Translations under genes and position numbers: made by a program
The notes under the pieces: model-generated
The model's database searches: none
The model's input: the letters and a program-made list of their open reading frames with translations, nothing else
Told to the model about the DNA's origin: nothing
Part shown: positions 22,928-57,987 of the stretch, one piece after another
Numbering within the stretch: the stretch's first letter is position 1
How the letters are laid out: every line of letters begins with the position of its first letter
From: a virus
Lineage: Duplodnaviria; Caudoviricetes
DNA length: 64,000 nucleotides
Strand: one strand, 5' to 3'
Virus record (IMG/VR): IMGVR_UViG_3300021197_001180
Location: 768-64,767 of that record

Positions 22928-24555
22928 TGGCTGCAACAGAGCAGACCTTCCCTATCGCGTGTAGGGGAGGATTAGACCTGACAACTAACACGCAAGAATT
23001 ACTCAATAAACCTGGATGGGCTACACGCTTAGTAAACTTTGAGCCATCTAATGATGGTGGTTACCGAAGGATCTCAGGGTATACACCCCTAGGTTCTGGT
23101 AGAACTCCAGGTACTGAGGAGAATAGGATTAAAGGGGTACACTGGGTTGATGATAGATTACTTATTGCTTGTCATGACTCAGCAGTTTATTTAACTTATG
23201 ATTTAACTAACTGGACTCAGATCAATAAGACTATGGATTTAGTGGCAAACCCAAATGGTATTGATTACACAGCTCTACAAGCTGCCGTTGCTTTACCTAG
23301 AAGTACTAGTTATCATTATAACTTCCAAGTCTTTAGGCAAGGAACAGAGGTAATTATAATGGGAGCTTCGGAAGGCTCCAGTCCTTTCTTCTTTAAGATC
23401 GATGGCACTACATTAGAAGATAGTACATATACTTACAAGGAGTTATCCTTAACAGCAGGATCTCTATCGGGAGCTACACACTCTGAGAAGTTTAAAGATC
23501 AGTATGTTATATCGGGAATGGATTCAGCACCAGCTGAGATCTACTACTCTGACATCCTTAAACCTGATGACTTCGAAGGAGGTAACGCAGGTTCTATAGG
23601 ATTCAATGATACAGTAGTAGGTTTACAGATGTTCAGGGAATCTTTATATGTATTCTGTCGTAACTCAATCCATAAGGTTGACGGGTTATCTAGTGGTTCC
23701 CCTCAACGAGTCCAAGTAACTACAAGGATTGGTTGTGTTAATGGGGATTCCATTCAGGAACTAGCAGGTGACTTAGTGTTCCTAAGTCCCGATGGTATCC
23801 GAACTCTTTCAGCAACCGCTAGGATAGGCGATGTAAATATATCTACCTTATCTGAGTCAGTAGCTAATAGACTTAGGGTTATCAATAAAGACATAGACTT
23901 ATATGACGTGAGGAGTGAAACACTTAAGAACAAAGTACAGTATAGAATATTCTTTAAAGCTAAACCTGGAGAACCTGTAGGTTCTTATAGTCTTATAATG
24001 CATATGGAGTTAGATGAGAATGGTAACTCACGTCCTGCATTCTCTGAGATTACAGGGTTTGAAGTAGCTTCTATTCATAATGGTTTCTATGGAGGCAAGG
24101 AGAAGACTGTTACTGGTGATCTAGTAGGTAACCTTTGGTTCCATGATGAAGGGGTAGACTTTAATGGAGCCTACATATACTTCCTATATGAGACACCTTT
24201 CTTTGCTATTGATGACCCAGGGCTTAGGAAGAATGTACACAAGCTCTTAACATACTTAAAGGTTGAAGGAGATACAAGTTTCAACATAGCAGTTAAGTAT
24301 GATCATGATGCTAAGGAAGCTTATCAACCTGCACCTTATGCTGTTGGTCCTCTTAAAGCCCCAGCGCTTTATGGAACTACAGTCTATAAGACTGGCAACG
24401 TAACATATGGTACTGAGAAAGCACCAGTAGTTAACACCTTGACCGAGGGATCAGGTAAGACTATCGCAATCAGGATATTCCCTTCAGGTGAACGATGTGA
24501 TCCTTTTAGTCTTCAGGGCTTTGATCTATCCTTCGTTCCATCAGGTAGAATTTAA
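22927..24555 (+). CDS. Tail nozzle / stabilisation (tubular B-like) protein
   Basis: NFEP...GGYRRI, IQELAGDLVFLSPDGIR motifs; GTG start overlaps upstream TAG. Confidence 0.75.
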   Translation: MAATEQTFPIACRGGLDLTTNTQELLNKPGWATRLVNFEPSNDGGYRRISGYTPLGSGRTPGTEENRIKGVHWVDDRLLIACHDSAVYLTYDLTNWTQINKTMDLVANPNGIDYTALQAAVALPRSTSYHYNFQVFRQGTEVIIMGASEGSSPFFFKIDGTTLEDSTYTYKELSLTAGSLSGATHSEKFKDQYVISGMDSAPAEIYYSDILKPDDFEGGNAGSIGFNDTVVGLQMFRESLYVFCRNSIHKVDGLSSGSPQRVQVTTRIGCVNGDSIQELAGDLVFLSPDGIRTLSATARIGDVNISTLSESVANRLRVINKDIDLYDVRSETLKNKVQYRIFFKAKPGEPVGSYSLIMHMELDENGNSRPAFSEITGFEVASIHNGFYGGKEKTVTGDLVGNLWFHDEGVDFNGAYIYFLYETPFFAIDDPGLRKNVHKLLTYLKVEGDTSFNIAVKYDHDAKEAYQPAPYAVGPLKAPALYGTTVYKTGNVTYGTEKAPVVNTLTEGSGKTIAIRIFPSGERCDPFSLQGFDLSFVPSGRI

Positions 24556-24568
24556 CAGGAGGATTATA

Positions 24569-25120
24569 ATGAAAGCATATGTGTACCAGTTACTATTTCC
24601 TAACAACAAAGAGTATATAGGAGTGACTACAGATTTAGATACAAGATTCTCGAAGCATCGTTCTGACAAATCTAAAGTCGTAGGTAAAGCTATTACTAAG
24701 TATGGCTGGGATAATGTCAAGAGAGATTATAAAGAATTTGAGAATGAAGCAGAAGCTTATGATTATGAGGCTGAGATAGTGGATCAACCCTTTGTAGATT
24801 CACGCAACACTTATAATCAGAAACTAGGAGGTCGCTTCTCTCCTTTCATGAATCAACTTATTAGAGATAAGATTAGTGAATCTAAGAAAGGACATGAAAC
24901 AGATGAAGAGACTAGACTGAGAATATCGAATACTTTAAATCCTAATGGTTATCCTACTCTAATACACGAAGAACATGGAGTTCATACTCCTTCTACCCTA
25001 CAAGGGTTTGCAAGGAAGTGGGAGCTTAATGCTCCTGATGTACATAGATTAATTAAAGGCGGCCGTCCTTCAACTAAAGGATGGAGAATTCATACAGATA
25101 AGGAGGTGATCTATCGCTAA
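24569..25120 (+). mobile_element. Free-standing GIY-YIG homing endonuclease
   Basis: AYVY...EYIGVT..L..RF..H, YN...GG, NUMOD3-like KISESKKGH, C-terminal KGW; GGAGG SD before ATG 24569. Confidence 0.85.
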
Positions 25121-25805
25121 TGGCTATACTCGACAATCCGTGTTCATAGATGGTGATGTAATCTTAGCAGAACATGGTAACTTAGAATTTGATTGGTTGG
25201 TTAATGTCTTTAATGATGTGACTGGACATAATCATGACGGTACGGTAGGTGGTGGAGCTGCTGTTCCCTTGCTTAAGGATTTAACTTTAGCTCAAGACTT
25301 TACCTTGAGTTCCACAGGAGTTACAGGTTCTGTAATCCTTGATGAGATTGGTTTAGTAACAAACTCAGATAAGCATTTAGCAACTCAGAAGTCTATTAAG
25401 TTATATGTAGATACTAATGCTGCTACCCTAGAGGCAGTTGATATTGGTTTACAATCACAGATAGATGTGTTTGAGAACTCTAACCATGGACACATTAACT
25501 TATCACAGTTAAACCAAGTAGGCTTAACGGCTCTCTCAACGGTAGACTTTGAAGCTGTATATGGTTACGATTATCTCATTGATGGTACTAGTAATACAGT
25601 AGATTGTACATTACCTGTACCAGCAGCAGGTCAAGAGTTTCTCATTACTAACTCTAGGTTCTCAACGAATGTAGTACAAGTATTGAACCCAACACAAACA
25701 ATCAAAGGAGCTATTGAAGTAGCCCCTGGAACTAATATAATCTTAGCCCCTGGTGATACCATCAGACTCGTAGCTACTGATTCAACAACAATGGAGGTAA
25801 TATAA
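25113..25805 (+). CDS. Tail fibre anchor/adaptor protein; proposed ATC start
   Basis: In-frame (I)ANGYTRQSVFIDGDVI, GHNHDG, LATQKSIKLYVD; AAGGAGGTG SD before ATC 25113. Confidence 0.75.
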   Translation: MANGYTRQSVFIDGDVILAEHGNLEFDWLVNVFNDVTGHNHDGTVGGGAAVPLLKDLTLAQDFTLSSTGVTGSVILDEIGLVTNSDKHLATQKSIKLYVDTNAATLEAVDIGLQSQIDVFENSNHGHINLSQLNQVGLTALSTVDFEAVYGYDYLIDGTSNTVDCTLPVPAAGQEFLITNSRFSTNVVQVLNPTQTIKGAIEVAPGTNIILAPGDTIRLVATDSTTMEVI

Positions 25806-36980: not shown

Positions 36981-37295
36981 ATTTCATTAGCATATACCAA
37001 AGAGTTCATTGCCACCTCCGAGTCCCAAATGATTTTAGGGAAGGATGGTAACAGGACTGAACTTACAGTGTTTAATACATCTGACACTGAATTCCTATTC
37101 ATAGGACTAGGGAATGAATTAGATGTATTTACAGCAACCAATACATTACCGCTGGCACCAGGGGAAGCTTACGATGCGTCCATAGTTCCCCTCAATGCGG
37201 TATTCTTAATGACCAACGGCCCTGATGTACCTACAATAGTTTACTATGCATCAAGGAGCCCAGCCTACGTAAGAGGGTTACTATCTAATGGATAA
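36981..37295 (+). CDS. Small beta-rich structural protein; proposed ATT start
   Basis: AAGGAGG SD before in-frame ATT 36981; ATG 37029 lacks an SD. Confidence 0.6.
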   Translation: MSLAYTKEFIATSESQMILGKDGNRTELTVFNTSDTEFLFIGLGNELDVFTATNTLPLAPGEAYDASIVPLNAVFLMTNGPDVPTIVYYASRSPAYVRGLLSNG

Positions 37296-42634: not shown

Positions 42635-44329
42635 TTACCCTTCACAAGCTACACACTCTCCTGTGGCTGCTTGGACACCTGCTTTAGTTCGCATGTAATA
42701 TAGGGCTTTAATGTTTTCATCTTTAAATCCTAGTCGGTGTATCTTAGCAATGTAAGCTTCAGGTGCATCAGCATCAAAGAATAGATTAACTGATTGACCT
42801 TGGTCTATGTACCGCTGTCGTGCACTAGCTAGTCTTAAGATGGTCTCTTGATGTATCTCATAGGCTGTCTTGAATACATCCTTCTCGTGGTCTGTGAGCC
42901 ACTCTAAATGCTGGACTGATCCATTGTTGTCAATTATTGACTTGACGAGTTTATCATCCCAACCCACTCGTCCTTTAGCAAGTTCCAAGAACACAGGGTT
43001 AACCCTATAAATTTCTCCAGCTGCGGTAGGTTGGTTGTATACGTTGGCGACAACAGGTTCAATTCCCTGCGAAACTCCACCACAAAGTAATGCTGATGAA
43101 GTATTGGGAGCGACTGCCAATAAGTGAGTATTGCGTCGTCCAAGTCCTTTACAGTACTTAGGTTCTCCAAGTTTCTCCGCAAGCCACTTGGTAGCTCTTT
43201 CCGCTTCACGATTAATCCTCCCGAAGATCTCATGGTTCTCTTGATGTGCCTCGAATGATTCGAATGCTATTGACTTCTGTTGTAAGTATGTATGGAACCC
43301 TAAGGCTCCAAGGCCTATCGGTCTACCGTTAACAGTACCTTTCAAAGACTTCTCTAATCCAGGGATGTTAGTAGCTAACTCAATAAACTCACTAGCAACA
43401 CAATCCAAGAACACCACGCTATCGAATATAGCATCAGTATCTTTCCACTCGTCATACTTAGATAGGTTAAGGGATGAAAGCACACAAGTAAACGTCTCAT
43501 CTTCAGAGCTGTGTAACATGATCTCAGTACATAAGTTACTTGCTTTAACATCTAAGTCATGAACCTTATAGCTCGTCGGGTTAGCTCGGTTAACCTTGTC
43601 CACAAAGAAGAAGTAACCTTTGCCTGTAATTGCTTTGACTTTAAGCGCCTTCTTGAATCGTTGACGTGCATCAAGATCTCCTGCGTCAAGGCGCTCAATG
43701 AATGCATCGGTAATAACCCATCCGATGTTAAGGTCGTCGGGCTCTGCCTGTAAGCTCTCCGCAACTTCAAAGAAGTCTCCGTGATCGATCGGTAGATACC
43801 CGGCCCAAGCACCACGCCTTGATGTTCCCTGAGCAACGTCTCGCATATCCTGGACAAATCCTTTAAAGACTGGTAGTACACCACTTGCTGTGCCTCCTGC
43901 CGATATGGAAGTACCTCTGGGTCTAATGTCACCAAGATATCCAGAAGTTCCGAAGCCATTCTTTGTAAGGATTGCAGTCTCTTTCCTGTTACCATAGAAT
44001 TCATCAATTGAATCCCCTATATATTGACCTGAACAAGAGACAGGTAATCCCTTGTTAGTTCCTGTGTTACTTAAGACTGGTGTTGATGCAGCTAACCAGC
44101 CGTTCCAGAGGAGGTTAAAGAACTTAGCCTCCCATTCATCTTCATAACCTACCATGTGTCTTGATAAGGTGGATGCTATCCTTAGATAGGTATCTCTAAG
44201 ACCACGGGCCTCATGGAGATACTTATCTTTAAAGAGTTGATAGCCACCTGTTGTAAACCAGAACGGAACATCTCCAGTCTTCTGAAGTTCTTTCCGTTCA
44301 TCCGATAGCTTTTGATATATCGTAGTTAT
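42635..44329 (-). CDS. nrdA: Ribonucleotide reductase class Ia alpha subunit; proposed ATA start
   Basis: TPVLSN, PVSC, SNLCTEI, APNTSS, YYMR, C-terminal CVACEG; GAGGAG 7 nt before ATA 44329. Confidence 0.93.
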   Translation of the reverse strand: MTTIYQKLSDERKELQKTGDVPFWFTTGGYQLFKDKYLHEARGLRDTYLRIASTLSRHMVGYEDEWEAKFFNLLWNGWLAASTPVLSNTGTNKGLPVSCSGQYIGDSIDEFYGNRKETAILTKNGFGTSGYLGDIRPRGTSISAGGTASGVLPVFKGFVQDMRDVAQGTSRRGAWAGYLPIDHGDFFEVAESLQAEPDDLNIGWVITDAFIERLDAGDLDARQRFKKALKVKAITGKGYFFFVDKVNRANPTSYKVHDLDVKASNLCTEIMLHSSEDETFTCVLSSLNLSKYDEWKDTDAIFDSVVFLDCVASEFIELATNIPGLEKSLKGTVNGRPIGLGALGFHTYLQQKSIAFESFEAHQENHEIFGRINREAERATKWLAEKLGEPKYCKGLGRRNTHLLAVAPNTSSALLCGGVSQGIEPVVANVYNQPTAAGEIYRVNPVFLELAKGRVGWDDKLVKSIIDNNGSVQHLEWLTDHEKDVFKTAYEIHQETILRLASARQRYIDQGQSVNLFFDADAPEAYIAKIHRLGFKDENIKALYYMRTKAGVQAATGECVACEG

Positions 44330-44330
44330 C

Positions 44331-44674: not shown

Positions 44675-44675
44675 A

Positions 44676-45647
44676 TTAATCCTCCTCTATAATCCATTCG
44701 AAACCATCCTCATTCCAGTCCCTGTTATATTCATTACCAGTTCCTGTGAAGAAGTCATGTAGTTGAACAGCATTGATACCATCATAGAACCATTCACGGA
44801 TTACATTGTTCTCTTCATTGAAGATAGCTGTAAGTCCTAAGTTCTCAAGGCAAACATTAAGCCTGTGGTTCACAAAGATCTTCATCTGTTCAGGCGTTAT
44901 GCCATCCATAGGACCTTTCTCAAACAACATGTCAATGATCTCATGCTCATGCTCTTGGATCTGTCTAGCAACTTCCTCAAGCTCACCCCTTAGCTCCTCA
45001 GGATCTCTGTTAGTCTCCTCAGCTATCTGATGAAATAACCTAGCACCTGCAACAGCATGTAGGTTCTCATCTCTAACCGAGAACTTAATACCACGACATA
45101 CATTCATTAGTTTATTCTTACCAGCGGACTGGAAGTGTAACAGGAATGCAAAGGCTGAGTATAACACTGCACCTTCTATCATACTAAAGGCACCTACAGA
45201 TCTTAGAGGATCTTTACTACCAATAAGTTCCTTAACGAAATCCATTCGGGCAGATAGAACTGGGTCTGTCTTATAACCTAAGTAGAACTCTTCTGTGTTA
45301 AGGTTCAAGGCTTCGTTAAGTTTGTTGTAGAATGGTGCATGTACACCCATCTCAGTGTAGCTTATGGTCGAACAGAGTCGTTGGATACAAGGTCTAGGGC
45401 ACATGTTCATTACCTTAGAACCCCAGTAGTCCACACCAGCTTTGAGTTCATACAATGTAAACAACTTCAATGTAGTCACAACACCGTGTGCCTCACTAGG
45501 AGTCATGTTTACTTTAATATCTTGTATGTCTTTCTCTACTGCAATCTCTTTCTCCGTCCATAGGATGTCAGCTTGTTGCTCTGCTATCTCAACGGCCCAT
45601 GGATAATCAAATACATAGGCCTCCTTAGCTTCAAATATCTGTGCTAT
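44676..45647 (-). CDS. nrdB: Ribonucleotide reductase class Ia beta subunit; proposed ATA start
   Basis: E-x-x-H...Y, EG, RDENLH diiron motifs, DFF tail; N-terminal DYPWA...W..KEI..EKD lies upstream of first ATG. Confidence 0.92.
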   Translation of the reverse strand: MAQIFEAKEAYVFDYPWAVEIAEQQADILWTEKEIAVEKDIQDIKVNMTPSEAHGVVTTLKLFTLYELKAGVDYWGSKVMNMCPRPCIQRLCSTISYTEMGVHAPFYNKLNEALNLNTEEFYLGYKTDPVLSARMDFVKELIGSKDPLRSVGAFSMIEGAVLYSAFAFLLHFQSAGKNKLMNVCRGIKFSVRDENLHAVAGARLFHQIAEETNRDPEELRGELEEVARQIQEHEHEIIDMLFEKGPMDGITPEQMKIFVNHRLNVCLENLGLTAIFNEENNVIREWFYDGINAVQLHDFFTGTGNEYNRDWNEDGFEWIIEED

Positions 45648-46078
45648 CTTTCACCTCCAAGAGCCTTCAAGGTCCCGAAGTGTACCTCAGCTCGATGTCC
45701 TGTCTGCTCATAGTACTTAGAGTCTTTAAGTTCATCAGCTGCAAGTAAGTATTCTTGGTGCTTCAAAGCCTTAAACATATTCTTAAAGCCATTGACACCT
45801 TGAACCCCTAGGTTATAAGCCATATCAGTTACAATCAAACGTACTTCCATAGGTGCTTCAACTAACCAAGGGTGATGGATCATCATAGACTTACGATAGT
45901 CTTCAAGGATCTTAAGAGACCATTCCCTAGCCTCTGTTTCAGTGTATGGATATACTTCTAGGTTCCTCCCGAAACCTATAGTCTGAAAGCCTGCTGGACA
46001 TTCATAAGGTAGTCCTTCGAATCCTTCAAACTCTTCTAACATCCCTACATTTAATAGTAGTTCTTCTGTCTTAGTCAC
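45644..46078 (-). CDS. Endolysin, T4-lysozyme-like (GH24)
   Basis: FEG....PYECPAGFQTIGFGRNL, DMAYNLG, F..M, DSKYY.Q..R. Confidence 0.9.
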   Translation of the reverse strand: MTKTEELLLNVGMLEEFEGFEGLPYECPAGFQTIGFGRNLEVYPYTETEAREWSLKILEDYRKSMMIHHPWLVEAPMEVRLIVTDMAYNLGVQGVNGFKNMFKALKHQEYLLAADELKDSKYYEQTGHRAEVHFGTLKALGGER

Positions 46079-46745
46079 CTAATACCTCCTTTAATACAGG
46101 TAATTGTTCTAATAGGATAGCCTTCGCTTGGTCAGCTATCACCTTGTGTTCCTTTTGAGTGCCATTACCACAGCGTAGTTGACAGTAATGAATCCATGAA
46201 CGGATAGTACCATTCATATACATCTTAGTTTCTGTCAGGCCTTCAGGTAGCAGAACACGAGCTTGCTCTTTAGCTACTCCTCGTTCGAGGGCTTCGTGGT
46301 AGGCTGTAAGAGCAGTCGATAGGACTGTCTTCTGTAGGAAACCAAACGCATCCTGCGCTTCCTCATCCTCAGTCTCGATTGAGTTCTGCCTGTTTGTTTC
46401 ATCCTGTAACCTAGCCTCCCTTTTGACAGTGAAATGATCTGCTTCAGCGTACCGTTGAGAGAACTCTTGGAAACTGAAACTCCTATGCCTTAAGATCTGC
46501 CTACTAATATCTCTAGTAGTAGTAATCTCAAGAGTCATAGACCCCATCTCGAAAGGACTCCAATGCTGGTGAGCTACTAGGTACTTCAATAACCTAGAGG
46601 CTTTCTCCATATCGAACTGCCCTTCAGTATTAGATACTTTAGCTTGAAAAGCTATCAGCTCCCCTAAGTTATTAATACCTTCTACCTTAGGCTCTGTAAT
46701 GCCTACTAGTTTAACATTATTCAGAGTCTTCATTCCCCCATGCAT
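46071..46745 (-). CDS. thyX: Flavin-dependent thymidylate synthase
   Basis: HWSPFE, RHRSFSFQEFSQRY, QARVLLP, RSWIHY, TQKEH; exact start uncertain. Confidence 0.95.
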   Translation of the reverse strand: MHGGMKTLNNVKLVGITEPKVEGINNLGELIAFQAKVSNTEGQFDMEKASRLLKYLVAHQHWSPFEMGSMTLEITTTRDISRQILRHRSFSFQEFSQRYAEADHFTVKREARLQDETNRQNSIETEDEEAQDAFGFLQKTVLSTALTAYHEALERGVAKEQARVLLPEGLTETKMYMNGTIRSWIHYCQLRCGNGTQKEHKVIADQAKAILLEQLPVLKEVLGD

Positions 46746-46876
46746 GACGATTGTTTCGTTGCTTCCTACGGGCTATCTTATTAGCCTTACGTTCCTTAAG
46801 TTCCTCAAGTTTATCTTGACGATCTTGTTCGTAGTCCTTCATTAACTGCTGGTTCTCTGTCAGTTCTTCACCCATG

Positions 46877-47254
46877 TTACTCTCCTAGGATTGCTTTAAG
46901 ATTTGGTTCACTGAAGTCTGGACCTTTAAGTACCTTACCATCCTCACGGATCACAGGCTTACCGTCAGTCCCTAGCTTTGACATGTTACTACGATGAACT
47001 TCACGTAACCCTTCATCAATAGGATAACCATACAAGGCTCCCTGTTGTGCTGTTACGTAGATGATATCAATGATTGCATCAAAGGTTTCAGTAATGTCAC
47101 CCTTATCAAATGCAATTGCTAACTCACTTACTTCCTCCATGATTAACTCACCGAAGGTAGACTGTTGATCTTTTGTTGGCATCACAGGTTTACTTTCAAT
47201 GTCATTAGGTTTGTAAGTCTCATTGAATTGATTAATCATATTACCTAAACTCAT
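46877..47254 (-). CDS. MazG / PRA-PH-like nucleotide pyrophosphohydrolase
   Basis: EEVSEL, DAIIDIIYV, EVHRSNMSK, REDGKVLKGP. Confidence 0.85.
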   Translation of the reverse strand: MSLGNMINQFNETYKPNDIESKPVMPTKDQQSTFGELIMEEVSELAIAFDKGDITETFDAIIDIIYVTAQQGALYGYPIDEGLREVHRSNMSKLGTDGKPVIREDGKVLKGPDFSEPNLKAILGE

Positions 47255-47257
47255 TCT

Positions 47258-47389
47258 TTATTCTCCTTTACTCTTAGCCGTCTTGTTATAAGCTCGTTTA
47301 TAGTTACCACCTTTACCTTTACCACTGTTACCAGGGTTTAGCTGAGGGGCTGATAGGAATACTTGAATGAATTCTTTACTTTGTTTCAG
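47258..47389 (-). CDS. 43-aa basic peptide with weak ArfA-like KGKG motif; proposed CTG start
   Basis: GAGGAG 7 nt before CTG; fills the gap between two genes. Confidence 0.5.
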   Translation of the reverse strand: MKQSKEFIQVFLSAPQLNPGNSGKGKGGNYKRAYNKTAKSKGE

Positions 47390-47675
47390 TTTGTTTCTCC
47401 TCTAATTCGATTGCTCTTTCTATAGAAGCCTTAGCTTCTTTAAGATCCTGGAGTTTACCTTTAACCCCACGGGTCCCAGGACACAATAACTTCTTGAGTC
47501 CATGGGCTGTCGCTGGACAGGTAACATTGAAAGCTACTAAGACATCATATACATCCACTATGATTTCCCCTGGGTTCTTAGGGTCTTCGTGGGGTAGATG
47601 GTTTATTACTCTTTGGTACTTGTTTATCTTCTTTCTCCTTCTGTTTTCTATAATCTTCTCGACGTTGTTCATCAT
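47376..47675 (-). CDS. Conserved phage protein (DUF3310-like)
   Basis: VDVYDVL.AF.V..PA..H..KKLLC.G.RG.K...QDL.EA pattern. Confidence 0.7.
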   Translation of the reverse strand: MMNNVEKIIENRRRKKINKYQRVINHLPHEDPKNPGEIIVDVYDVLVAFNVTCPATAHGLKKLLCPGTRGVKGKLQDLKEAKASIERAIELEEKQTETK

Positions 47676-47787
47676 AGTGACTCATTTCTTTCAGCCTCCA
47701 CTACTATAGAGTTAAAGGCCATAAGTCCACATACAAATACATACATGTAGATATAGCCTGCTAATTGTAACCAGATAGGTGTTTCCA

Positions 47788-47988
47788 TTATTCACCTGTT
47801 AGCATTGCTTTAATATTAATGATTGCTTTCCCTGCAATTGAAGACTCCTCAATGGCTGCTAACTTCTTAGCCTTTGCCTCTGCCTCCTTCTTCTCTTGAA
47901 CTTCTGCTTCCTTTAATTCTCTTGCTTGTACCTTCTCAAGGTCACTTGTAAACGTAGCAAATACTGATTGAGTAGTCTTCTTAAACAT
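47788..47988 (-). CDS. Small coiled-coil protein
   Basis: Charged helical ORF. Confidence 0.65.
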   Translation of the reverse strand: MFKKTTQSVFATFTSDLEKVQARELKEAEVQEKKEAEAKAKKLAAIEESSIAGKAIINIKAMLTGE

Positions 47989-47991
47989 AAT

Positions 47992-48423
47992 TTATTTCTC
48001 TATTTGATTGTAGAATTGAGTGAATGATTCCTCATCAAAGAATCTGAAACCATTCTTGGTTGCCCACTCTCCGTGGGTTTGCTTAGTACCATCCCTTCGT
48101 TTAGTCCTGAAGTGAATAGCTTTCATCGGGTTGTCGAAGATGAATAAGATCTCATGGTCTTCAGGCAATGCCTTCCTAACCCAAGTATACTTAGCAGCTT
48201 CGGCTGATTCCCTGAAGTACCCTTTGAACTCAAGGACATAAGTCCCAGAGGCATGAGGTATCAGGAAGTCTGGCTCATATTTGTGTTCAGTTACATATTC
48301 AATCTTATCAGGATGAAAGATCTCATCCTTAAGTAATCCATTATGTAGTCTGTGTTCAGGCCATGAGTCATAGCCTTTGGGTAAACCTTTGGGTCTAGGT
48401 GGGAAGAATCTCTTAGCCGGCAT
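47992..48423 (-). CDS. Endonuclease I-like (T7 gp3 type) resolvase
   Basis: YDS..E, YEPDF, LEFKGYF, W..KNGF. Confidence 0.85.
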   Translation of the reverse strand: MPAKRFFPPRPKGLPKGYDSWPEHRLHNGLLKDEIFHPDKIEYVTEHKYEPDFLIPHASGTYVLEFKGYFRESAEAAKYTWVRKALPEDHEILFIFDNPMKAIHFRTKRRDGTKQTHGEWATKNGFRFFDEESFTQFYNQIEK

Positions 48424-48670
48424 CTAATGATTCTTCTAACTTAAGACCAATAGGTATTATAATTACCACACCATTACACTTATTTCTTTTAAGCTTATCA
48501 GCACATTTAGTGGCTTGCCTTAAACACTTGTAGAACTCAGAGCCTCTAGGACTACAAGTCCAAGGGTCCTCTGTCTCTGATTCGGCAACTACTAAATACC
48601 GTGCCTTACCTATGAATTCTTTAAGTCTCATCTTCACTATCCTTAAACCCTGTAGATACCAACAGATCAT
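48413..48670 (-). CDS. Hypothetical protein
   Basis: ORF in operon; true start probably MRLKEF. Confidence 0.55.
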   Translation of the reverse strand: MICWYLQGLRIVKMRLKEFIGKARYLVVAESETEDPWTCSPRGSEFYKCLRQATKCADKLKRNKCNGVVIIIPIGLKLEESLDAG

Positions 48671-48911
48671 ATGCTGTTATCGTAGGATATTTCTTCAATG
48701 ATTTCCTTACCCACTTCCGAGTGAATGGAGTTAAGGTTGCCCTTCGCTCATCGTCATTCCCAGGAACAGGTGTCATTGTCACACCATCTGGCTGTACCAT
48801 AGCTAACAGTTCTCTATCTGTTAACTCCTTAGCTACTTCCTCGGTTAAGAAACCTCGATGTAACTGTATTAGGATCTCATTGACCCTCTTATTAAATTGT
48901 TGCTTGTTCAA
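48621..48911 (-). CDS. Hypothetical protein
   Basis: TTG start overlapping upstream EELI-TGA. Confidence 0.65.
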   Translation of the reverse strand: MNKQQFNKRVNEILIQLHRGFLTEEVAKELTDRELLAMVQPDGVTMTPVPGNDDERRATLTPFTRKWVRKSLKKYPTITAYDLLVSTGFKDSEDET

Positions 48912-49722
48912 ATTAATTCCTCCTCCATGTAGCCTATTAAGAAATCTAACGCATTAGATAAGGGAGTATTTAAGTTCTCATATCCAGGAGTTACTATAAT
49001 TGCGGACTGACCATCACCGCCTCTATAAGTTATAGTGAAGTCTTCCCTAGCAAAGTATCTCATATGAGTTCCTCCAAGTGTTCCCAACTTACTCTATCGT
49101 TCGCTAAGGTATTACTATTATCAGTATACCTAGCGAGAGTTGAGCTACTGGTACCCCCATAAGACATAAAGTATTCAATACGTAATGAACCTTCATCCGT
49201 ATATATGGCTACGTAGTCTCCTCCCTTACTAGTGGCTACTCTAGTTGTGTAGATCATTGTGCTGTTTCCTTAAATAATAATTCATATCCTTCAGGCTCCT
49301 CAAGAACTGGGGGTTCCAAGAGGCCCTCAACTAAGAGGTCCTCCAAGAGATAGGGGTCTATTTCAAAGTATTCATAGATCATATGAGTTCCTCTGCTTCA
49401 TTATCATCAAATCCATATCGAAGTTCATCCCTATAAGAATAACATCTTCTTGCATAATATCCAAGATGTGTGGTACTGATGAAGTAACCTATCCTAGGTA
49501 CTGTAGGCCTTGAACTATCATGACTAATTATAGCATCACTAGTTGCAAAATATTTAATCATATTAATTCCTCGTAATCATGAATTCTAATATCTTCATCG
49601 GCTGTCTCATTCCCTGATAAAGGATGAAAACCACTACAAAGAAAGAGGTCATTGAATTCCTTTCCAGTGCCATACTCATCATAGATAGCCTGAGTCAGAC
49701 CATTATACATTAAGTATCTCAT
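48908..49722 (-). CDS. EELI array 2: 49722-49558, 49561-49379, 49257-49060, 49063-48908, plus a non-EELI acidic 42-aa ORF at 49382-49254
   Basis: Hand translation; all coupled by ATGA/TTGA overlaps. Confidence 0.8.
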
Positions 49723-49880
49723 ACAATACCCTCATCTACAACAGTCATTCCTAGCCATCTTGCCATATCAATTATATCATCCTTGTTATAATGTATCTCC
49801 GTGCAAGTTGCTTCTACTTCAACTCTACTTCTATCTTCAGGGACATAAACATCCTCGATATCTTCATCACTAAGTTCCAT
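49719..49880 (-). CDS. Small acidic protein, 53 aa
   Basis: MELSDEDIED...VDEGIV; GAGG SD. Confidence 0.6.
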   Translation of the reverse strand: MELSDEDIEDVYVPEDRSRVEVEATCTEIHYNKDDIIDMARWLGMTVVDEGIV

Positions 49881-49883
49881 AAC

Positions 49884-50783
49884 TTAATCCTCGTACACTT
49901 TAAACATACTAGCTACACCCTTAGGAACTGGAACCTCCTTAGGTTTGAAGTCTAGCTCCTCATCTAACCACTGCTCAGCTTCCTTGGATGTCCTCAACAT
50001 GTAGATTAAATCAAATGTCTCTTGGAATCTCAAGGCTCCATAGCCCTCATCCTCCTCTTCATCTTCATACTTTTCAATATAAAGCTCTAAGACTTTTGAT
50101 GGCCATTGTTCTAGTGGATACTCTTCTAAATATTTCTCGGCTGACTTAGGACCATACAGCTCCTGTAAAGGATACTTTCTGTAAGGTCTTCTGCCATCCC
50201 ATGGTACTGTTTGTAACCAAGCATTGTAGGTTCCAGTTAATGATTCAGATATAGCATGGGAAACTCCTGGGATATTATCCGTCTTGTCTCCTGTTATAAC
50301 CTGCAACCATAAGTTCCTATCACCTTGTTCCTCTGAAATCTCAAAGACCTTATCAGATTTATTTACATTGTAATGTAAGCCAGGGACTTGAAGTAAATCT
50401 TTATCCTCTGTAACTATAACTGATTGTATTCCTCTAGACTTAAAGAACCCTTGGGCTATTGCTAACCCATCGTCTGCTTCAATACCGCTTAATACTTGAG
50501 CGCCCCAGTGTTCTACCATATAATCTCTAATCCTCTGATAGTACTGAGGCTTAGAGGTAGCTTTACGATGACCCTTGTAAGGCCATGTAACTCCTAATAT
50601 ATTCCTGTAGTTCTTAGGGCTATCCGTAAGATAACCTACGTAATGTGTAGCTCCTGCTTTACTTAGCCAACCTTGAAGATACAAATCAACAGTGTTGGTA
50701 ACAGTCTCCCAGTCCTCTTCATCCTCACATGCTTGACCACAGTGGTATACGGGGATGTCGAGATCTAGGATGGCCACCCTCAC
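49884..50783 (-). CDS. 5'-3' exonuclease (T7 gp6-like)
   Basis: ILDLD, YKGHR, EADD, DKDL.QVPG, GDKTDNIPG. Confidence 0.9.
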   Translation of the reverse strand: MRVAILDLDIPVYHCGQACEDEEDWETVTNTVDLYLQGWLSKAGATHYVGYLTDSPKNYRNILGVTWPYKGHRKATSKPQYYQRIRDYMVEHWGAQVLSGIEADDGLAIAQGFFKSRGIQSVIVTEDKDLLQVPGLHYNVNKSDKVFEISEEQGDRNLWLQVITGDKTDNIPGVSHAISESLTGTYNAWLQTVPWDGRRPYRKYPLQELYGPKSAEKYLEEYPLEQWPSKVLELYIEKYEDEEEDEGYGALRFQETFDLIYMLRTSKEAEQWLDEELDFKPKEVPVPKGVASMFKVYED

Positions 50784-51178
50784 AGGGCAACCCTCCATTC
50801 CGATGTGTCAAAGCCATGACGTGGAACATAATCCTCTTCAGTTGACTCTAACATTACAGTCTTAGATGGATAGACTGATTCATTTGGGATAACCCATGCC
50901 ATAGCTTTACCTACGACAAAGAATTCATCTACCTCTACAGGACTGTAGGGTTCAACTACACCATTCCTCATGGTCGTTAAGACTCCAAGAGTATACACTG
51001 TGCCTCTACGGCGATAGGTTCTCTTGGATGCTGTCTTTACCTGTACCTTAGTTGCAACCCCATCCTTCAAAGCAATAAAGTCACAGCGGGGTGTAGAGTC
51101 CATAGGGATGAACACTTCGTAACCACGCTCTGTGTAGTTTGCCATTGCTTTTAATTCGTTTACTGTACCTGTATTAAT
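50780..51178 (-). mobile_element. PD-(D/E)XK homing-endonuclease-like protein; proposed ATT start
   Basis: G..VFIP....CD.I...KVQVKT...Y...EVD.F; upstream in-frame NTGTVNELKA. Confidence 0.7.
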
Positions 51179-51393
51179 TATATTTCCTCCTGTTGTTTAA
51201 GCTCTTCTTGAGTCATCCACTCACCATCTTCTATGTGTCCTTTACTTACAAAGAACATAGGGGTTAGCCAACGACGTTCATACATATAAACATATAGACC
51301 TTTGTAATGAGGACCATACATACCACAAGGTATTGTATAGTCCCTTAGATCCATAAGTTCTTTAAGCTTACTAATTAGTGAGTGTCTGCCCAT
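51178..51393 (-). CDS. Hypothetical protein
   Basis: ORF overlapping the polymerase end. Confidence 0.5.
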   Translation of the reverse strand: MGRHSLISKLKELMDLRDYTIPCGMYGPHYKGLYVYMYERRWLTPMFFVSKGHIEDGEWMTQEELKQQEEI

Positions 51394-53258
51394 GTTGTAC
51401 CTTCCATTGCTTCACCTTCGATTGCTATCCGAGTCTTAAGTTCTTCACCAGCCTGAAGCATTGCAGCCTCACAGACCTGTTTGAATCTTTCAACATCCTT
51501 AATAGCTACATCGAATTGTCCTTCATCGTGGATATTACCTACTGCAAGAACGTCAAGTCCTTCAGCTTCTACTGCCTTCATTACATTACGTAACCAAACC
51601 TTCATGATTATAGCTCCACAACTCTGAAGTAAGCTGTTAAGTGCAGCATGTGCTGACCTAACTTTAACTCTGCGACCATCAATACCCTTAAGCCAACCAC
51701 GTTCAGCAGCATTTAGTACACCCTCTCTAAGTTTCTTAAGTGCTGGTGTGTTGTCAAGGAACCTCTTCTTAAGTCGCTTCCCATCCTTTGATGTTCCGCC
51801 TACTATAGATCCTATCTTAGCATCACCTGCTCCATATAAGAAAGCATATATGAAAGTCTTAGCTTGATTCCTAAAGTCTAACCCTGCTGCATGTTGGTTC
51901 GCAGTATGGATATCACCTGTTAAGATTAAGTCTGTGTACTCTGGGTCATTCATGTAGTGGGCTAAACAGCGAAGCTCAAGACCACTAGCATCACAGCCAA
52001 TTTGTTTCCTTCCTTCAGGTACAGTGAACAAAGCTCTACAGTCTGCACCATATGCACCTTCGAATCCCCAAAGTAACTTACCTTCCTTGTCTACTTTAGA
52101 TGCTGGAACCTGTGCTAAGTTAGGACCACTATGTGTCATCCTGCCTGTCACTGCCCCTAAGGTATTCACATACCCATGGATTCTATTAGTATCATCATTG
52201 AAGTTCTCTATCCATGAAGTTATCATAGACATACGTTTGGTTACCATGAAGTAATCAGCCAGTAATGTAGCCTCAGGGAACTGATCCCTGATAGCATCTA
52301 ACACTGGTTCATTAACTACTATGTTACCATTGTCCGTAAGAACCTTAGGCTTCCAGCCTCGATGTAACAACTGTTCAGCTATCTGTTGCCTACTACCTAG
52401 ATTAAACTCAGGCCAGTCAATCCTGGTGAAGCTACCACTAAGGTACTCCCTACCATACTGACCTTCAATATAATCAGGCTCAGGTATCAAGTCTTTAAAG
52501 TCCTCAAGGAACTTAAGACCCACCGAGCTTACACCTCCAGCCTTCAAGGCTCTAGGTTGTATCTCTTTGATCTGTTTAGGTAAAGGCTTAAAGGTCTTAT
52601 GCACTTCATCCTCAAGCTCCTGTATCTTCTCAGCTAACTGAGCGGATAACTCACAGGCTCCACGGATATTAAAGTACCAACCATTAGATTGTTGTTGAGC
52701 AATGTAACCAGCTATATCCATCTCTAGTTCTATGGAGTATTCTGTGAAACCTGATAACTCCTTCCTTAGAAGATTGTAAACTTCTACATTAACTCTTACA
52801 TCTTGTTGACAATACAATAACATCTCTTCACTGAATGTTTCCCAACCAGCATCCTCACCGAAGTCCCCTTTGTTTGCCTTGGCATAGTAGCCTAGGTTCA
52901 TTAAGGTATGTGGACCTACGATCTTCTTCTTCTGGTTGTGTTCATCCCAAACAGTCGTTGGACATTTAGGATGTAGAGACCTGTTCGTGTTACTAAGTCT
53001 ACTCATTACTAGAGTATCCATTAGCTTACCACTGAACTCAAAGTCATAGAGCTTCTTCAGGGCTGGCATGTCGTAGCCTATAATATTGTGGCCTACAAGG
53101 ACATCAGCTTCCTTTAGTTTCTCAAGACCTTTAAGGATCTCATCTGGTCTGTAACTAAATACTTCTCCTGTTCTTACATCCTCAATGACGATGCAGTGTA
53201 TCAGGGACACGGTATCTAATAGACCGTTAGCTTCTATATCGAAGCAATACTCTTTAAT
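51375..53258 (-). CDS. Family A DNA polymerase; proposed ATT start
   Basis: Exo I FDIEANGL upstream of the track start, HNIIGYD, TGRMTH, DASGLELR, AKTFIYAFLYG, IHDE. Confidence 0.95.
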   Translation of the reverse strand: MKEYCFDIEANGLLDTVSLIHCIVIEDVRTGEVFSYRPDEILKGLEKLKEADVLVGHNIIGYDMPALKKLYDFEFSGKLMDTLVMSRLSNTNRSLHPKCPTTVWDEHNQKKKIVGPHTLMNLGYYAKANKGDFGEDAGWETFSEEMLLYCQQDVRVNVEVYNLLRKELSGFTEYSIELEMDIAGYIAQQQSNGWYFNIRGACELSAQLAEKIQELEDEVHKTFKPLPKQIKEIQPRALKAGGVSSVGLKFLEDFKDLIPEPDYIEGQYGREYLSGSFTRIDWPEFNLGSRQQIAEQLLHRGWKPKVLTDNGNIVVNEPVLDAIRDQFPEATLLADYFMVTKRMSMITSWIENFNDDTNRIHGYVNTLGAVTGRMTHSGPNLAQVPASKVDKEGKLLWGFEGAYGADCRALFTVPEGRKQIGCDASGLELRCLAHYMNDPEYTDLILTGDIHTANQHAAGLDFRNQAKTFIYAFLYGAGDAKIGSIVGGTSKDGKRLKKRFLDNTPALKKLREGVLNAAERGWLKGIDGRRVKVRSAHAALNSLLQSCGAIIMKVWLRNVMKAVEAEGLDVLAVGNIHDEGQFDVAIKDVERFKQVCEAAMLQAGEELKTRIAIEGEAMEGTTWADTH

Positions 53259-53270
53259 ATTTCCTCCTTA

Positions 53271-54912
53271 TTATATTAGTTCTTCGCACTGTTCAGCGGA
53301 TAAGTAGTCTTCTCCGTTATTCGCAACAGAACCTTCTCGATACACCATAGTCTCATGACCTGAAGTCTGTGAATGATACTGAGTTGTGTTAGATTGTTCA
53401 TATACAATATCTATATAAGTATCTAAATTCTCTTCATCTCCGTAGATAGAAGCATATACATTCATATCAGTTCCTCCACTGACGCACCATGATTATCAAT
53501 GATGTTAGATAAAGATAAAGAAGAGGCTGTAAGATCATCGAAGCGTTCATCAACATGAGGATTATAAAGTAAACCACGGTGGGCATTGCTATCCATGTCT
53601 TCAGCTTCTATAAGATATGTCCAGTTACCTAATTCAAAGTAATAGTATCTCATATCAACTCCTCAGTTTCTGTATAATACCTATGGATATCAGACATTGT
53701 CATAGTCTGGACACCTGGAGTCAGCTGCTCAATACCATAAGTTCCCATAACTTGAGTCCTCTCAGGTCTCGCTATATCATCTTCACCATGGAATATATAG
53801 TCAGTACCTTCTAGGTGTAATTGAAAGTATCTCATATCAACTCCTCCCATCCTCTATGCAAGGGTTCACTATCACGTCTACGATATGCAATAGGTCCCTG
53901 CCAAGAGCTGTCACTATTACCCACAATCCTAACAGCTCCAGGAACCTTAAGATACACAGTACCTGTCTTGTATCTGTAGTACTTACCAACTTGAGCAATC
54001 ATATTAACTCCTCATAGATGGCTTCTTCAGATACACACCATTGATCTTGAGAATCCCATGGTATCTGTTCTCTGGAATTATTCCAAGAACATTCAGTTAC
54101 TAGGCCACAAGGAACCATGAAGTAATCTTCCTCCGATGGATACCAGAACTCTGTGAACTCTTGGACTGCTACTAACATACCTATTTGTACTTCGTCATAA
54201 GTCATATCAATTCCTCCACTCTACGATCTACACGTAAACCTGGCATAGTGTGTTCCAAGTCTTCCTTTTCTATAATCTCAGTATGCTGAGCTCCTTTATA
54301 TTTCTGCTTACAGATAGGATCCCTTCTAGAGTCACTATGATAGGAAACTATAAGAGATCCATTGGTCCTTATATAATTGGCCCATAAATAGTATCTCATA
54401 TCAGTTCCTCCCATCCTAACTGTCCTTGTACCACCTCCCAGTTAGAGAAGGCTATCGTCCATATAGAAGTAGAGGTTTGATACCTAAGAGTTTCTGAGAG
54501 GACTCCATCTTCATTTGGATTATCTGTATATGTAAAGTATCTCATATTAGTTCCTCCACATCACCTACTCTTCTCAATCCCTCGATAGACTTAAGTTGAG
54601 TAAGCCTACCCCGCATAATCTCAGTACTATTACGACGTAACTCCTGACAAGCTACAGGTTTGCTCCGCATCCCATTGAAGTTACTAGCAGTATACTTTGC
54701 TGTAAGTGTTATGCTACTACTATGATATATAAAGTATCTCATATGAGTTCCTCCGTATCCCTGTTTCGCTTACAGACATCAAGAGAAACCCCATCACTAG
54801 GGTCTATCCTCCACATACCTTGGACTCCCATAAAGAAAGTATCAGGATGTTCATAGAAATAATTTCTATATGTTAATTGTGTACCACTTTGGTACCTAAA
54901 GACTCTAACCAT
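53271..54912 (-). CDS. EELI array 3: nine coupled ORFs (54912-54739, 54742-54542, 54545-54396, 54399-54202, 54205-53999, 54002-53832, 53835-53650, 53653-53462, 53465-53271)
   Basis: All end EELI-stop; five begin MRY; two are absent from the ORF track because they are under 60 aa. Confidence 0.85.
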
Positions 54913-54928
54913 AATGGTAGCCTCTTGA

Positions 54929-56623
54929 TTAGTACTCAGTATCCTCGGGATCGTGGAGGAAATGAGAAACTTCTTCGTCGCCCCCAATCTCCAAAAGCCT
55001 ACCAGTCTCTGGGTCAAACCACAGGTGTGTGGCTATACCAGTCTGTCCAGTGTAACGAGACTTCAAGACCCTAACCTTCGTTAGGTTTGCTGCCTTCTCA
55101 CACTGTGCTTGTTGATCCCGCTCAAGTCCAATGACTGCATCACTTAACTGAGCTATAGATTGAGAACCCCTGAGGTGACTTAAGGAAACTTCAGAACCAT
55201 TCTCATGACCTTTGTCCCCACCAACCCTACGAAGGTGGCTCACCAAGAACATTGATATACCTGTCTCTTGAACTAACTGTCTTAGCTTAGTCATGATGGA
55301 GTCTATGTTCTTTCTTTCATCACCACCGTCTTCTTGCGACGAAACCACAATAGATAGATGGTCAAGAATAACACGCTTACATCCAAGAGCTTTAACCATA
55401 TATCTAATTTGAGCGATAAGATTATCACCAGATGTGGAACCGAAGTGATCGTAAGCAACCAACCTACCAGTGCCAGCAGTGGCTTTAAACGCTGCCTTAT
55501 AGTCTTCTTTCGAAACAAGGTCACGATATTTCTTCCTATGTAGTTGAGTGTTACAGTGGATACCCATGATCCCTTGGGTTGTCCTTACTGGTGTCTCCTC
55601 CAAAGCTAAGATACCAATCATATCTTTAGTCTCTGTCAACATCCAGTACTCTAGTTCCCTCATCACTGAGGATTTACCCATGCCACTACCTGAAGTAATG
55701 GTTACGAGTTCAGCATCCCTGATACCATCTAGCATCTCATTCAAACCAGCCCAAGGATATGGGATACTTGGTAACTCATCGTCAGCCAAGAGGTCATCAA
55801 AGATATCTGCTAAGTTAACGATACCATCAGGTGCCATCCTCTTACGATCCCAATAGCAGGATACAAATTCCTTTAAGTCTCCATGCTTAAGGTATTCATT
55901 AGGGTCATTATACTTAACAAGAGGTACTATGTGTGCCTTCCCTGGGGTCAATAGCATTGCTACTTCTTTAGCCTTCTCCTGTCCAGGCTTATCGTTATCG
56001 AAACATATAACAACTTCACCAAATCCTTCAATGAAATCTAAGTTTCTTTTGATATCCTTAACAGCAGAGCCAGTACCATTACATACAGAAACAACAGGGT
56101 CTCTCTTGTTTAGCATGTGGTACACAGACATAGCGTCAATCTCACCTTCAGTTATAACCAACCTCTTACCCTTGGTAGGGAATAGATGTTGACCAAACAA
56201 CCCAGAGTTCTGGTTGCTTCCTAAAGCTAAGATCTGTTTCTTACCTTCAATCCTTTCAGCCTTACAGACCTTACCACCTGACAATACACTACTATCTCGA
56301 TCTCTTAACGGGAAGAATACATCTCCCTTAGAAGTTAACCGTGTTCCGTAGTGTCTTAATATCTGTGCTGGGATATATCTGTGTTGGTCCTGAGAGAACT
56401 CAAATTCCTCGGGGACTTTAAAAGCTGAAGGGTTTGTAGGTGTTGTGGGTCTTTCAGTACCAGTACCATCAGAAGGCAGGAGGATTCCAGCCTGTTCATG
56501 GTATTGTTTGTTATCGAAAGGTGTATTACATTTATGGCAATATGCCCCACCATCAGTATAACTACTCACCGCATCACTTGAACCACATGCCGGACAAGGC
56601 AGTCCTGACTTAACGAAACTCAT
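54929..56623 (-). CDS. Primase-helicase (T7 gp4-like)
   Basis: CPACGSSD Zn finger, TEGEIDAM and [34 protein letters not shown]. Confidence 0.95.
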
Positions 56624-57135
56624 TCTATTTCCTCCCAATCTTTATACAGACTGAGGATCTCACGAGCGTAGTCAATCTTGTCTTTAACATATTGCCCAGC
56701 AGGTTGGTAGGTACTCCATAATTCTAGGTTACTTAATCTATTATCAGACCTGTTACCATTCTTATGATGTACATTCTCGTGTGCCTCTAAACAACGTCCT
56801 AAGTGTTGCTCCATCACTATACGATGATGAGCTTTCCGCTTACCTCCTCTATATACCTGTAAATATCCTCTACAGTCTATCTTAGGTTCTCCATCAATAG
56901 TCCTTAAAGTAATTAGAGGATCTCCATGTCTAAACTGTCTTGTGTAGTGCATATCACATAACCCTTTCGAGTGATGTTCATTCATGCAACCTTCTACACT
57001 ACAACCCACAGTACCTATAACCCTAAAGGGCACTGAAGCTGAGACATGGCCTGTTCTTTTAAGTCTGGAATAATGTCCTGAACAATATCCCTTAGACTTT
57101 GAGGGCTTATCACAGCCCTCAGCATTGCATGTTAT
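56620..57135 (-). mobile_element. HNH homing endonuclease with two CxxxGC Zn-binding repeats; proposed ATA start
   Basis: [22 protein letters not shown]; first repeat [17 protein letters not shown] lies upstream of the track start. Confidence 0.85.
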
Positions 57136-57765: not shown

Positions 57766-57987
57766 CTATTTTAAATTTACGTTATCTAACTTTGCTTTAT
57801 GGAAAGATAACTGGGTATAATAAGGAGACATATTGTTAGCCTCCTCATTACTGAATTGGCTTACGATAGACCATAAGGACTGACGTTCACTTGACATTAA
57901 CAAGCGCTCCTGCCCATTAAAATCTCTCATGTTTTGGTCAGCCCATAGTAGGCCTATGATTTGTTTGTTGCTTAATGATCCGTAGAT
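57766..57987 (-). CDS. Hypothetical protein; proposed ATC start
   Basis: AGGAGGT SD before in-frame ATC; in-frame stop just upstream. Confidence 0.5.
   Translation of the reverse strand: MYGSLSNKQIIGLLWADQNMRDFNGQERLLMSSERQSLWSIVSQFSNEEANNMSPYYTQLSFHKAKLDNVNLK

Follow-up and report, generated by a model that had tools for sequence, protein, structure and literature searches.

Probable AUU, AUA and AUC start codons in a small clade of podoviruses related to Pseudoalteromonas phage vB_PtuP_Slicky01

Results

Genome organization and clade

The stretch of DNA analysed here, referred to as the window throughout, comprises 64,000 nt (bases 768-64767) of the 64,767-bp IMG/VR virus record IMGVR_UViG_3300021197_001180, a member of the Caudoviricetes, and has a GC content of ~40%. 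In this marine phage, the genes for a DNA polymerase (pol), both subunits of ribonucleotide reductase (RNR; nrdA and nrdB), a PD-(D/E)XK nuclease, an HNH endonuclease, a tail-fibre module, the large terminase (terL) and two small proteins (g36981 and g57987) appear to begin at ATT, ATA or ATC (collectively ATH; AUH in mRNA), each behind a Shine-Dalgarno (SD) motif (Table 1). The comparison with related phages supports the assignment of these nine genes to ATH starts, that of terL being probable, and indicates that the automatically assigned starts are wrong.

Genes lie on the minus strand from 1 to 9.4 kb, on the plus strand from 10.8 to 40.7 kb (structural module) and again on the minus strand from 40.7 to 64 kb (replication and nucleotide metabolism). 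Starts at AUH account for ~9% of the open reading frames (ORFs) of the window, or about one gene in ten, and are concentrated in the replication and nucleotide-metabolism module. An amidotransferase gene spans the two ends of the record (62656-64000 of the window plus G000:1-190). Because the joined ends form one open frame of this gene, starting from ATG-TGT (Met-Cys), the record represents a complete, circularly permuted genome. The sole tRNA gene of the window, tRNA-Arg(CCT), has counterparts in two relatives introduced below, as a 78-nt stretch of 86% identity in contig G006 and as a tRNA-Arg in phage Slicky01.

The nearest named phage is Pseudoalteromonas phage vB_PtuP_Slicky01 (Slicky01), and the gene order is the same as in PA11 and RIO-1 (Zobellviridae). 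For comparison we defined a clade of four genomes, a small group of ~65-kb podoviruses related to Slicky01: the window, Slicky01 itself, the 66-kb contig G001, and G006, a 22-kb fragment whose DNA is ~70-74% identical to the window and which is syntenic with its positions 44.7-64 kb. PA11 served as the comparison phage for the RNR genes. The phage of G001 was recovered twice, the second time as L120, a 57-kb contig from a different public metagenome assembly with 99.95% identity over 13.9 kb. Our metagenome scan for further clade members returned L120 as the single close record and no new member.

Table 1. Proposed start sites and associated features of the window. The sixth column gives the number of sense codons from the in-frame stop to the start, the seventh the position (in codons) of the first canonical codon downstream of it.
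Feature	Coordinates	Strand	Proposed start	SD, spacer and start	Sense codons from stop	First canonical codon	Context
tRNA-Arg(CCT)	4687-4763	-
Large terminase (terL)	12121..14127	+	ATT 12121 (probable)	AGAGGAG-taacctt-ATT			SD 7 nt upstream
GIY-YIG-type homing endonuclease ORF	24488..25120	+					PHROG 314 and other homing-endonuclease families; between two tail genes
Tail-fibre N-terminal module gene	25113..25805	+	ATC 25113	TAAGGAGGTGATC-t-ATC	1	+9	Perfect 13-nt SD
g36981 (104 amino acids; structural module)	36981..37295	+	ATT 36981	TAAGGAGG-atatt-ATT	9	+16	SD 5 nt upstream
nrdA (RNR large subunit)	42635..44329	-	ATA 44329	AGAGGAG-tcttaag-ATA			SD 7 nt upstream
nrdB (RNR small subunit)	44676..45647	-	ATA 45647	GGAGGTGA-aag-ATA	1	+47	SD at 45658-45651
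ORF of 43 codons	47258..47389	-	CTG 47389 (unsupported candidate)	AGAGGAG-aaacaaa-CTG			SD 7 nt upstream
PD-(D/E)XK nuclease	50780..51178	-	ATT 51178	AGGAGG-aaatata-ATT	6	+11	Start overlaps TAA of upstream ORF
DNA polymerase I-type gene (pol)	51375..53258	-	ATT 53258	TAAGGAGG-aaat-ATT	3	+16	SD at 53270-53263; TAA TAA at 53273-53268
HNH endonuclease	56620..57135	-	ATA 57135	TAGGAGA-ataagtt-ATA	1	+34	TAA-GTT directly upstream
g57987 (73 amino acids)	57766..57987	-	ATC 57987	AGGAGGT-aacaacag-ATC	2	+19

Start sites in the window

A preliminary description of this DNA, made by a model from the sequence alone, had listed ten genes with an ATH or CTG start behind an SD. On re-reading, all ten sites (10/10) carried the codon attributed to them, with an SD-like motif 3-8 nt upstream that matches TAAGGAGGTGATC over at least 5 nt. 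This match reaches at least 6 nt at six sites (13 nt at one of them) and only 5 nt at the other four.

In pol, nrdB, HNH, PD-(D/E)XK, g57987, g36981 and the fibre gene, an in-frame ATH sits at the conserved 5' edge and no canonical start (ATG, GTG or TTG) would keep that edge; the canonical codons downstream lack an SD. The earlier suggestion that a non-canonical start is nearly forced in several genes holds for pol, nrdB and HNH, where conserved sequence or a domain lies upstream of the first ATG, GTG or TTG. It does not extend to nrdA and terL, whose starts are not forced by the ORF alone because SD-less alternatives lie upstream (GTG 14 codons upstream in nrdA, TTG 10 codons upstream in terL). 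On the evidence of conserved sequence or domains and of the codons in relatives, eight starts are well supported (pol, nrdB, nrdA, HNH, PD-(D/E)XK, fibre, g36981 and g57987). The tenth candidate, CTG 47389, found no support: its ORF of 43 codons gave no tblastn match in Slicky01, G001 or G006 and belongs to no Pfam or PHROG family, so that the SD is its sole evidence.

Proximity to an upstream stop codon, the mark expected of translational coupling by termination and reinitiation, was not distinctive, as 9 of the 10 sites lie within ~15 nt of a stop (counted by eye) compared with 73% of 89 canonical starts; the start of g36981 lies 113 nt past the end of the preceding gene. Linkage to a homing or mobile endonuclease occurs at two of the ten sites (fibre and HNH), and the remaining eight adjoin ordinary genes.

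Start codons at orthologous positions

For the well-supported sites, the codon at the corresponding position in the relatives, to within one codon, is ATG, GTG, TTG or another ATH (Table 2). Alignment with related phages had been proposed as a check on the ATH starts, and ATT or ATH is indeed kept across three to four genomes in pol, PD-(D/E)XK and g57987. The nuclease uses ATT behind GGAGG(T) at the same codon in all four clade genomes, at about 50% protein identity, and pol uses ATT in three of four. All four orthologues of g57987 start at an ATH and never at ATG, the codons of Slicky01, G001 and G006 each following (T)AAGGAGGT or AGGAGGT. The ATA of nrdB is kept in two of two close relatives. 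In g36981, terL and the fibre gene, in contrast, the ATH is not kept and the relatives use ATG or GTG.

Table 2. Start codons at orthologous positions in the clade and in PA11.
Gene	Window	G006	Slicky01	G001	PA11
pol	ATT	ATT	ATT	TTG
PD-(D/E)XK	ATT	ATT	ATT	ATT
g57987	ATC	ATA	ATC	ATT
Primase-helicase	ATG	ATA	ATA	ATT
MazG-like	ATG	ATT	ATT	TTG
5'-3' exonuclease	GTG	TTG	TTG	ATT
thyX	ATG	not found	ATA	ATC or ATA
g57757	ATG	ATT	ATG	ATG
g48423	ATG	ATA	TTG	ATG
g36981	ATT	not covered	ATG	ATG
terL	ATT	not covered	ATG	ATG
Fibre module	ATC	not covered	GTG	GTG
nrdB	ATA	ATA			ATG
nrdA	ATA				TTG

A further case was found in G001, whose class-II glutamine amidotransferase gene (44400 region of that contig) has ATT directly before the codon for the catalytic Cys, where Slicky01 has ATG and PA11 has TTG. 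In class-II amidotransferases the catalytic Cys must become the N-terminal residue, and for this reason the ATT of G001 is forced by enzymology.

Enrichment over chance and over sister phages

Strict SD motifs are common inside genes (64 sense-strand SDs without a canonical start following). A scan for GGAG/GAGG 4-mers was discarded because these are too frequent inside genes to inform, and was replaced by matches of at least 5-6 nt combined with an ORF-boundary criterion. In this boundary test, SD motifs of at least 5 nt followed by no canonical start were scored for an in-frame ATH or CTG 3-10 nt downstream. Such a codon followed 7 of 11 SDs at ORF 5' boundaries of the window versus 32 of 188 inside genes (Fisher p = 0.0012). 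Slicky01 (6/9 vs 29/180; p = 0.0015) and G001 (4/7 vs 29/184; p = 0.018) behaved similarly, and four more distant genomes gave boundary counts of 2/3, 0/3, 0/2 and 0/2.

To compare genomes, we applied a fixed classifier to greedy, non-overlapping stop-to-stop ORFs of at least 60 codons on both strands, flagging those with an SD of at least 5 nt and an ATH or CTG no more than 15 codons from the ORF edge, ahead of any canonical codon. Within the clade it flagged 26 of 294 ORFs (window 8/91, Slicky01 7/83, G001 5/86, G006 6/34), whereas 79 other loci of polymerase relatives yielded 7 of 1123 (odds ratio 15, Fisher p = 7e-13; window alone against these loci, p = 3e-6). terL and nrdA fall into the ambiguous class of this classifier, and the ORF at 47389 lies below its size limit. 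Four complete genomes with ~40%-identical polymerases gave 1/88, 0/85, 0/70 and 0/75, and PA11 gave 2/70. The two other Pseudoalteromonas phages compared, RIO-1 and H105/1, gave 1/57 and 0/47, respectively. The ATH enrichment is a trait of this small clade, specific neither to the host genus nor to the phage family. Pairing with the anti-SD had a median of -10.9 kcal/mol at the ten sites versus -8.6 kcal/mol for 90 canonical starts (p = 0.004), the ten having been chosen partly for their SD.

Replication and nucleotide-metabolism genes

The pol frame opens at TAA 53270 and continues GGA GGA AAT ATT AAA GAG TAT TGC TTC GAT ATA GAA. The Exo I motif FDIEANGL follows the ATT and precedes GTG 53210, the first canonical codon. 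A Logan contig that spans this start (53131-53568) shows 0 differences from the window. Just upstream, 53271-54912 (minus strand) holds eight small tandem ORFs that share the junction GAGGA(A/G)(C/T)T(G/A/C)AT-ATG-A, in which the SD lies within Glu-Glu codons and each new ATG overlaps the Ile-stop that closes the ORF before it. The final cassette of this array ends ...GAA GAA CTA ATA TAA TAA and is followed by the separate SD and ATT of the polymerase.

The RNR genes of the window belong to the PA11 lineage, with 59% (nrdB) and 72% (nrdA) identity over the N-terminal 150 residues. Slicky01 and G001 were uninformative for both, as they carry a different RNR lineage (21-37% identity). The nrdB ATA overlaps the TAG stop of a lysozyme gene, and the frame opens one codon before it. 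The Pfam domain Ribonuc_red_sm spans residues 11-279 of the protein, of which the first ATG encodes residue 48. PA11 NrdB (59% identical) has ATG at the very codon where the window has ATA, and the nrdB of G006 has ATA one codon upstream of the window position, with no canonical option. For nrdA, all tblastn matches to the PA11 group (70% identical) start at query residue 15, which is the ATA codon, and the annotated PA11 start is a TTG at exactly this codon; the alternative GTG 44371 has neither an SD nor homology. A 42-codon Lys/Pro-rich ORF with KKPAP repeats (44331-44459, minus strand) lies between a 71-amino-acid ORF and nrdA. A single base separates its TAA from the ATA of nrdA, and it matched no Pfam or PHROG family.

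In the PD-(D/E)XK nuclease, the PDDEXK_5 match begins at residue 3 of the ATT-started protein. The HNH protein has an HNH_3 domain at residues 102-140, and its first canonical codon is residue 35. Actinophage HNH homologues align from residue 2 or 3, which shows that its Cys-rich N-terminus is conserved. The HNH protein of Zitch was set aside as evidence for the start itself: it extends further upstream with more Cys-rich repeats, showing a conserved N-terminus without fixing where it begins. The HNH gene, which stands beside the primase gene, is probably a mobile insertion, since it is missing from the closest relative, G006 (255 nt between the flanking homologous blocks). The conserved motif KQI(I/V)GLLWADQN of g57987 lies upstream of its first ATG.

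Terminase, fibre and structural genes

The terL protein matches PHROG terminase families. In its homologues in Slicky01 and G001, the distance from the ATG, which follows an SD, to the conserved DI(S/N)P(F/L)T motif is greater by a few codons. A start at ATT 12121 is probable, the alternative being TTG 12091, which lacks an SD and lies inside the upstream gene.

The fibre gene has a stop one codon upstream of its ATC, and Slicky01 and G001 have an SD and GTG at the homologous codon. In Pelagibacter phage HTVC033P and Puniceispirillum phage HMO-2011, the tail fibre is annotated from a position that aligns to within one codon of the ATC. The 13-nt SD of this gene is carried by the 3' end of the GIY-YIG ORF, whose place is taken in Slicky01 by ~1.4 kb of different coding sequence. 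In both Slicky01 and G001, ~340 codons upstream of the fibre module share its frame. For g36981, the SD and ATG of both relatives are offset by one to two codons relative to the homologous position; identity with them continues through the region upstream of the first ATG.

Discussion

Origin of the ATH codons

We consider it quite probable that the genes described here have genuine near-cognate AUU, AUA and AUC starts of low output, likely selected in pol, PD-(D/E)XK and g57987 and probably only tolerated elsewhere. Sequencing error as the cause is excluded, because the codons reappear across four genomes and in assemblies made independently. A check of the base calls at the start codons agrees with this: Logan contigs of X1, the one public DNA run that contains the stretch, showed 0 substitutions over 44200-58100 at a depth of 2-5, and the same codons stand in other genomes, among them a cultured isolate (Slicky01), while L120, a separate metagenome contig, carries the ATT codons of G001. 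Over the same interval, at least 23 deletions, each of 1-2 nt, set the Logan contigs apart from the window. These bear on frameshift claims and not on start codons, one example of a frameshift reading that needs raw reads being the -1 shift proposed at 62453-62695 in the preliminary description. An alternative genetic code or readthrough was rejected, as all three stop codons mark clean ORF boundaries.

Those results also leave hardly any credence for the view that the N-termini are supplied from upstream, by readthrough or a frameshift from the preceding ORF, or that base-call errors turned ATG into ATH. It is true that pol and HNH are in frame with preceding small ORFs, with only stops between, and that the 1-2 nt deletions in the low-depth contigs mean that indel errors exist in the data, but the sequence ahead of pol is TAA TAA in the window and another one in G006, and in Slicky01 a TAA immediately precedes the ATT; neither the substitution-free contigs nor the recurrence of the ATH codons in the isolate and in two records of G001 fits such a view. 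Very unlikely, too, is that translation begins at the downstream ATG, GTG or TTG, the codons that gene finders select and that the GenBank record of Slicky01 uses, with the SD and ATH being coincidental. An SD by itself is weak evidence, given how many such motifs occur within genes. However, with downstream starts pol would lose its Exo I motif, HNH its Cys-rich N-terminus and the RNR small-chain domain 37 residues. The ATA codons are where NrdA and NrdB start to align with their PA11 homologues, and both the missing SDs at the downstream codons and the boundary test (p = 0.0012) speak against downstream starts; this alternative is already contradicted by the alignments. The possibility that ATH is simply tolerated carries more weight, although we still hold it to be rather unlikely as a full account: strong SDs and abundant phage mRNA would make a change from ATG to ATH nearly neutral, so that such codons drift in and out without any throttle. 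In its favour, ATG, GTG, TTG and ATH swap at one position in primase, MazG, thyX, exonuclease, g57757 and g48423, and an AUA mRNA with an optimised initiation region behaved in vitro as the AUG mRNA at 20-40 °C (PMC5499595). Drift alone is at odds with the ATT of PD-(D/E)XK in 4/4 genomes at ~50% protein identity, with g57987 never having ATG and with pol having ATT in three genomes and TTG in the fourth, and it leaves unexplained the ~15-fold enrichment of the clade over sister phages and the two other Pseudoalteromonas phages.

The preliminary description had also suggested that the phage relaxes start-codon proofreading by initiation factor 3 (IF3) during infection. In this form, a clade-specific phage factor or a host peculiarity would make AUH starts efficient or turn them into a timed switch for middle and late genes, which we judge improbable. 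The enrichment does follow the clade, not the host genus or the phage family, and 21 of 22 early proteins are without a Pfam family, which leaves room for an unrecognised factor; ATH starts occur in 0 of 22 early-region ORFs versus 10 of 82 elsewhere, but this difference is not significant (p = 0.12). The genome itself offers nothing in support. The sole tRNA is tRNA-Arg(CCT) and not initiator-like, and a Pfam sweep of 66 minus-strand proteins detected no IF3, S1, S21 or other translation-factor domain, only a RimK-like ATP-grasp protein in an amidoligase operon. That operon is common to PA11 (2/70) and RIO-1 (1/57), both without enrichment. Moreover, strong SDs by themselves are known to drive AUU and AUA starts (PMC13009471). 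A particular version, to which we assign only slight probability, has an unrecognised early protein of the clade weakening start-codon proofreading (IF3 or the P-site check), with the AUH replication and packaging genes held off until it accumulates. If true, start codons would encode a translational timer.

Weak initiation, dosage and tolerance

On established knowledge of initiation, weak near-cognate starts would work as follows. The strong, well-spaced SD would position the 30S subunit at the AUH, with which the initiator fMet-tRNA would pair imperfectly, and the protein would begin with Met but be made at a fraction of the AUG rate. Proteins from ATH starts are, on this analysis, probably made in small amounts. 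In pol, PD-(D/E)XK and g57987, the weak codon may be maintained by selection for low enzyme dosage, and such selection is likely there because the codon is kept. In the other genes ATH is probably only tolerated, since the SD is strong and the codon flips among relatives. The idea, raised at the outset, that a tier of start codons throttles enzyme levels survives in part. It fits the ~10% of AUG reporter output recorded for AUU and AUA starts behind extended SDs in S. aureus (PMC13009471) as well as the ATH conservation in three genes, but the flipping of the primase start (ATG/ATA/ATA/ATT) fits tolerance equally. Plain weak initiation also agrees with reports that the activity of AUU and AUA mRNAs varies with context, temperature and nutrient state (PMC5499595) and that overproduction of IF3 reduces re-initiation (PMC2268962).

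Several points count against weak, partly selected ATH starts. The evidence is comparative, and terL and nrdA have SD-less TTG and GTG alternatives upstream. Free flipping between ATG and ATH in primase, MazG, thyX and exonuclease means that low dosage is not selected everywhere, and with four genomes the conservation of ATT could in part reflect common descent. Run X1 may be the sample from which the window itself came. The classifier rests on greedy stop-to-stop ORFs, its 7 background flags are raw, uninspected counts, and one of its flags in the window is probably false (CTG 19425; the stop upstream is overlapped by ATG 19437). Finally, the comparison of SD strength is biased by the choice of sites.

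Consequences for annotation and testing

Standard gene callers truncate ATH-started genes because they are limited to ATG, GTG and TTG, and protein databases built from such gene calls carry clipped N-termini. In the GenBank record of Slicky01, the polymerase is annotated from a GTG that lies beyond the Exo I motif, and the thymidylate synthase gene thyX from a codon 41 residues downstream of an SD and ATA. The Slicky01 primase and PD-(D/E)XK genes likely start at ATA and ATT, respectively. The positions noted for the Slicky01 annotation are L001 11853 and 13751, and 30367 and 39650 of the Slicky01 record. With 26 of 294 ORFs flagged in the clade and 7 of 1123 in the sister group, phage lineages that are closely related differ in how far they tolerate or use AUH, and host genus alone does not set this. 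Slicky01 and its host, Pseudoalteromonas tunicata, are in culture, and this phage shares the ATT polymerase, the ATT nuclease, the ATC small gene and the ATA starts of thyX and primase. The questions of a selected brake and of initiation fidelity during infection are bench-testable for this reason.

Comparison with known systems

The view that AUU starts are very rare, with which the preliminary description set out, holds for E. coli. There, infC (encoding IF3) and pcnB have an in-frame AUU behind an SD as their only possible start, and IF3 discriminates against it, limiting output. The autoregulation of infC is also stated in PMC5499595. The phage genes resemble these two in that a conserved protein has no possible start other than an AUH that follows an SD. 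They differ in that infC and pcnB are single host genes, infC being in a feedback loop with IF3, whereas in the phage clade ~9% of ORFs use AUH, the enzymes concerned are unrelated to translation and no feedback loop is apparent. We found no description of lineage-wide ATH starts in a phage in the literature.

A second parallel comes from S. aureus, where the starts of cvfC1 (AUU), ccpN (AUA), citZ (AUA) and infC (AUA) are directed by an extended SD and conserved in relatives (PMC13009471). In both systems AUU or AUA stands behind a strong SD and is conserved among relatives. The S. aureus starts were shown by ribosome profiling and reporters for four genes of a Firmicute, whereas those of the phage, whose host is probably a gammaproteobacterium, are known from comparison, and only 6 of the 10 phage sites have an SD match of at least 6 nt. 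The initiation mechanism itself is textbook. What sets the phage clade apart is the density of such starts (~9% of ORFs), the contrast between the clade and its sister group, and a cultured relative in which they can be tested.

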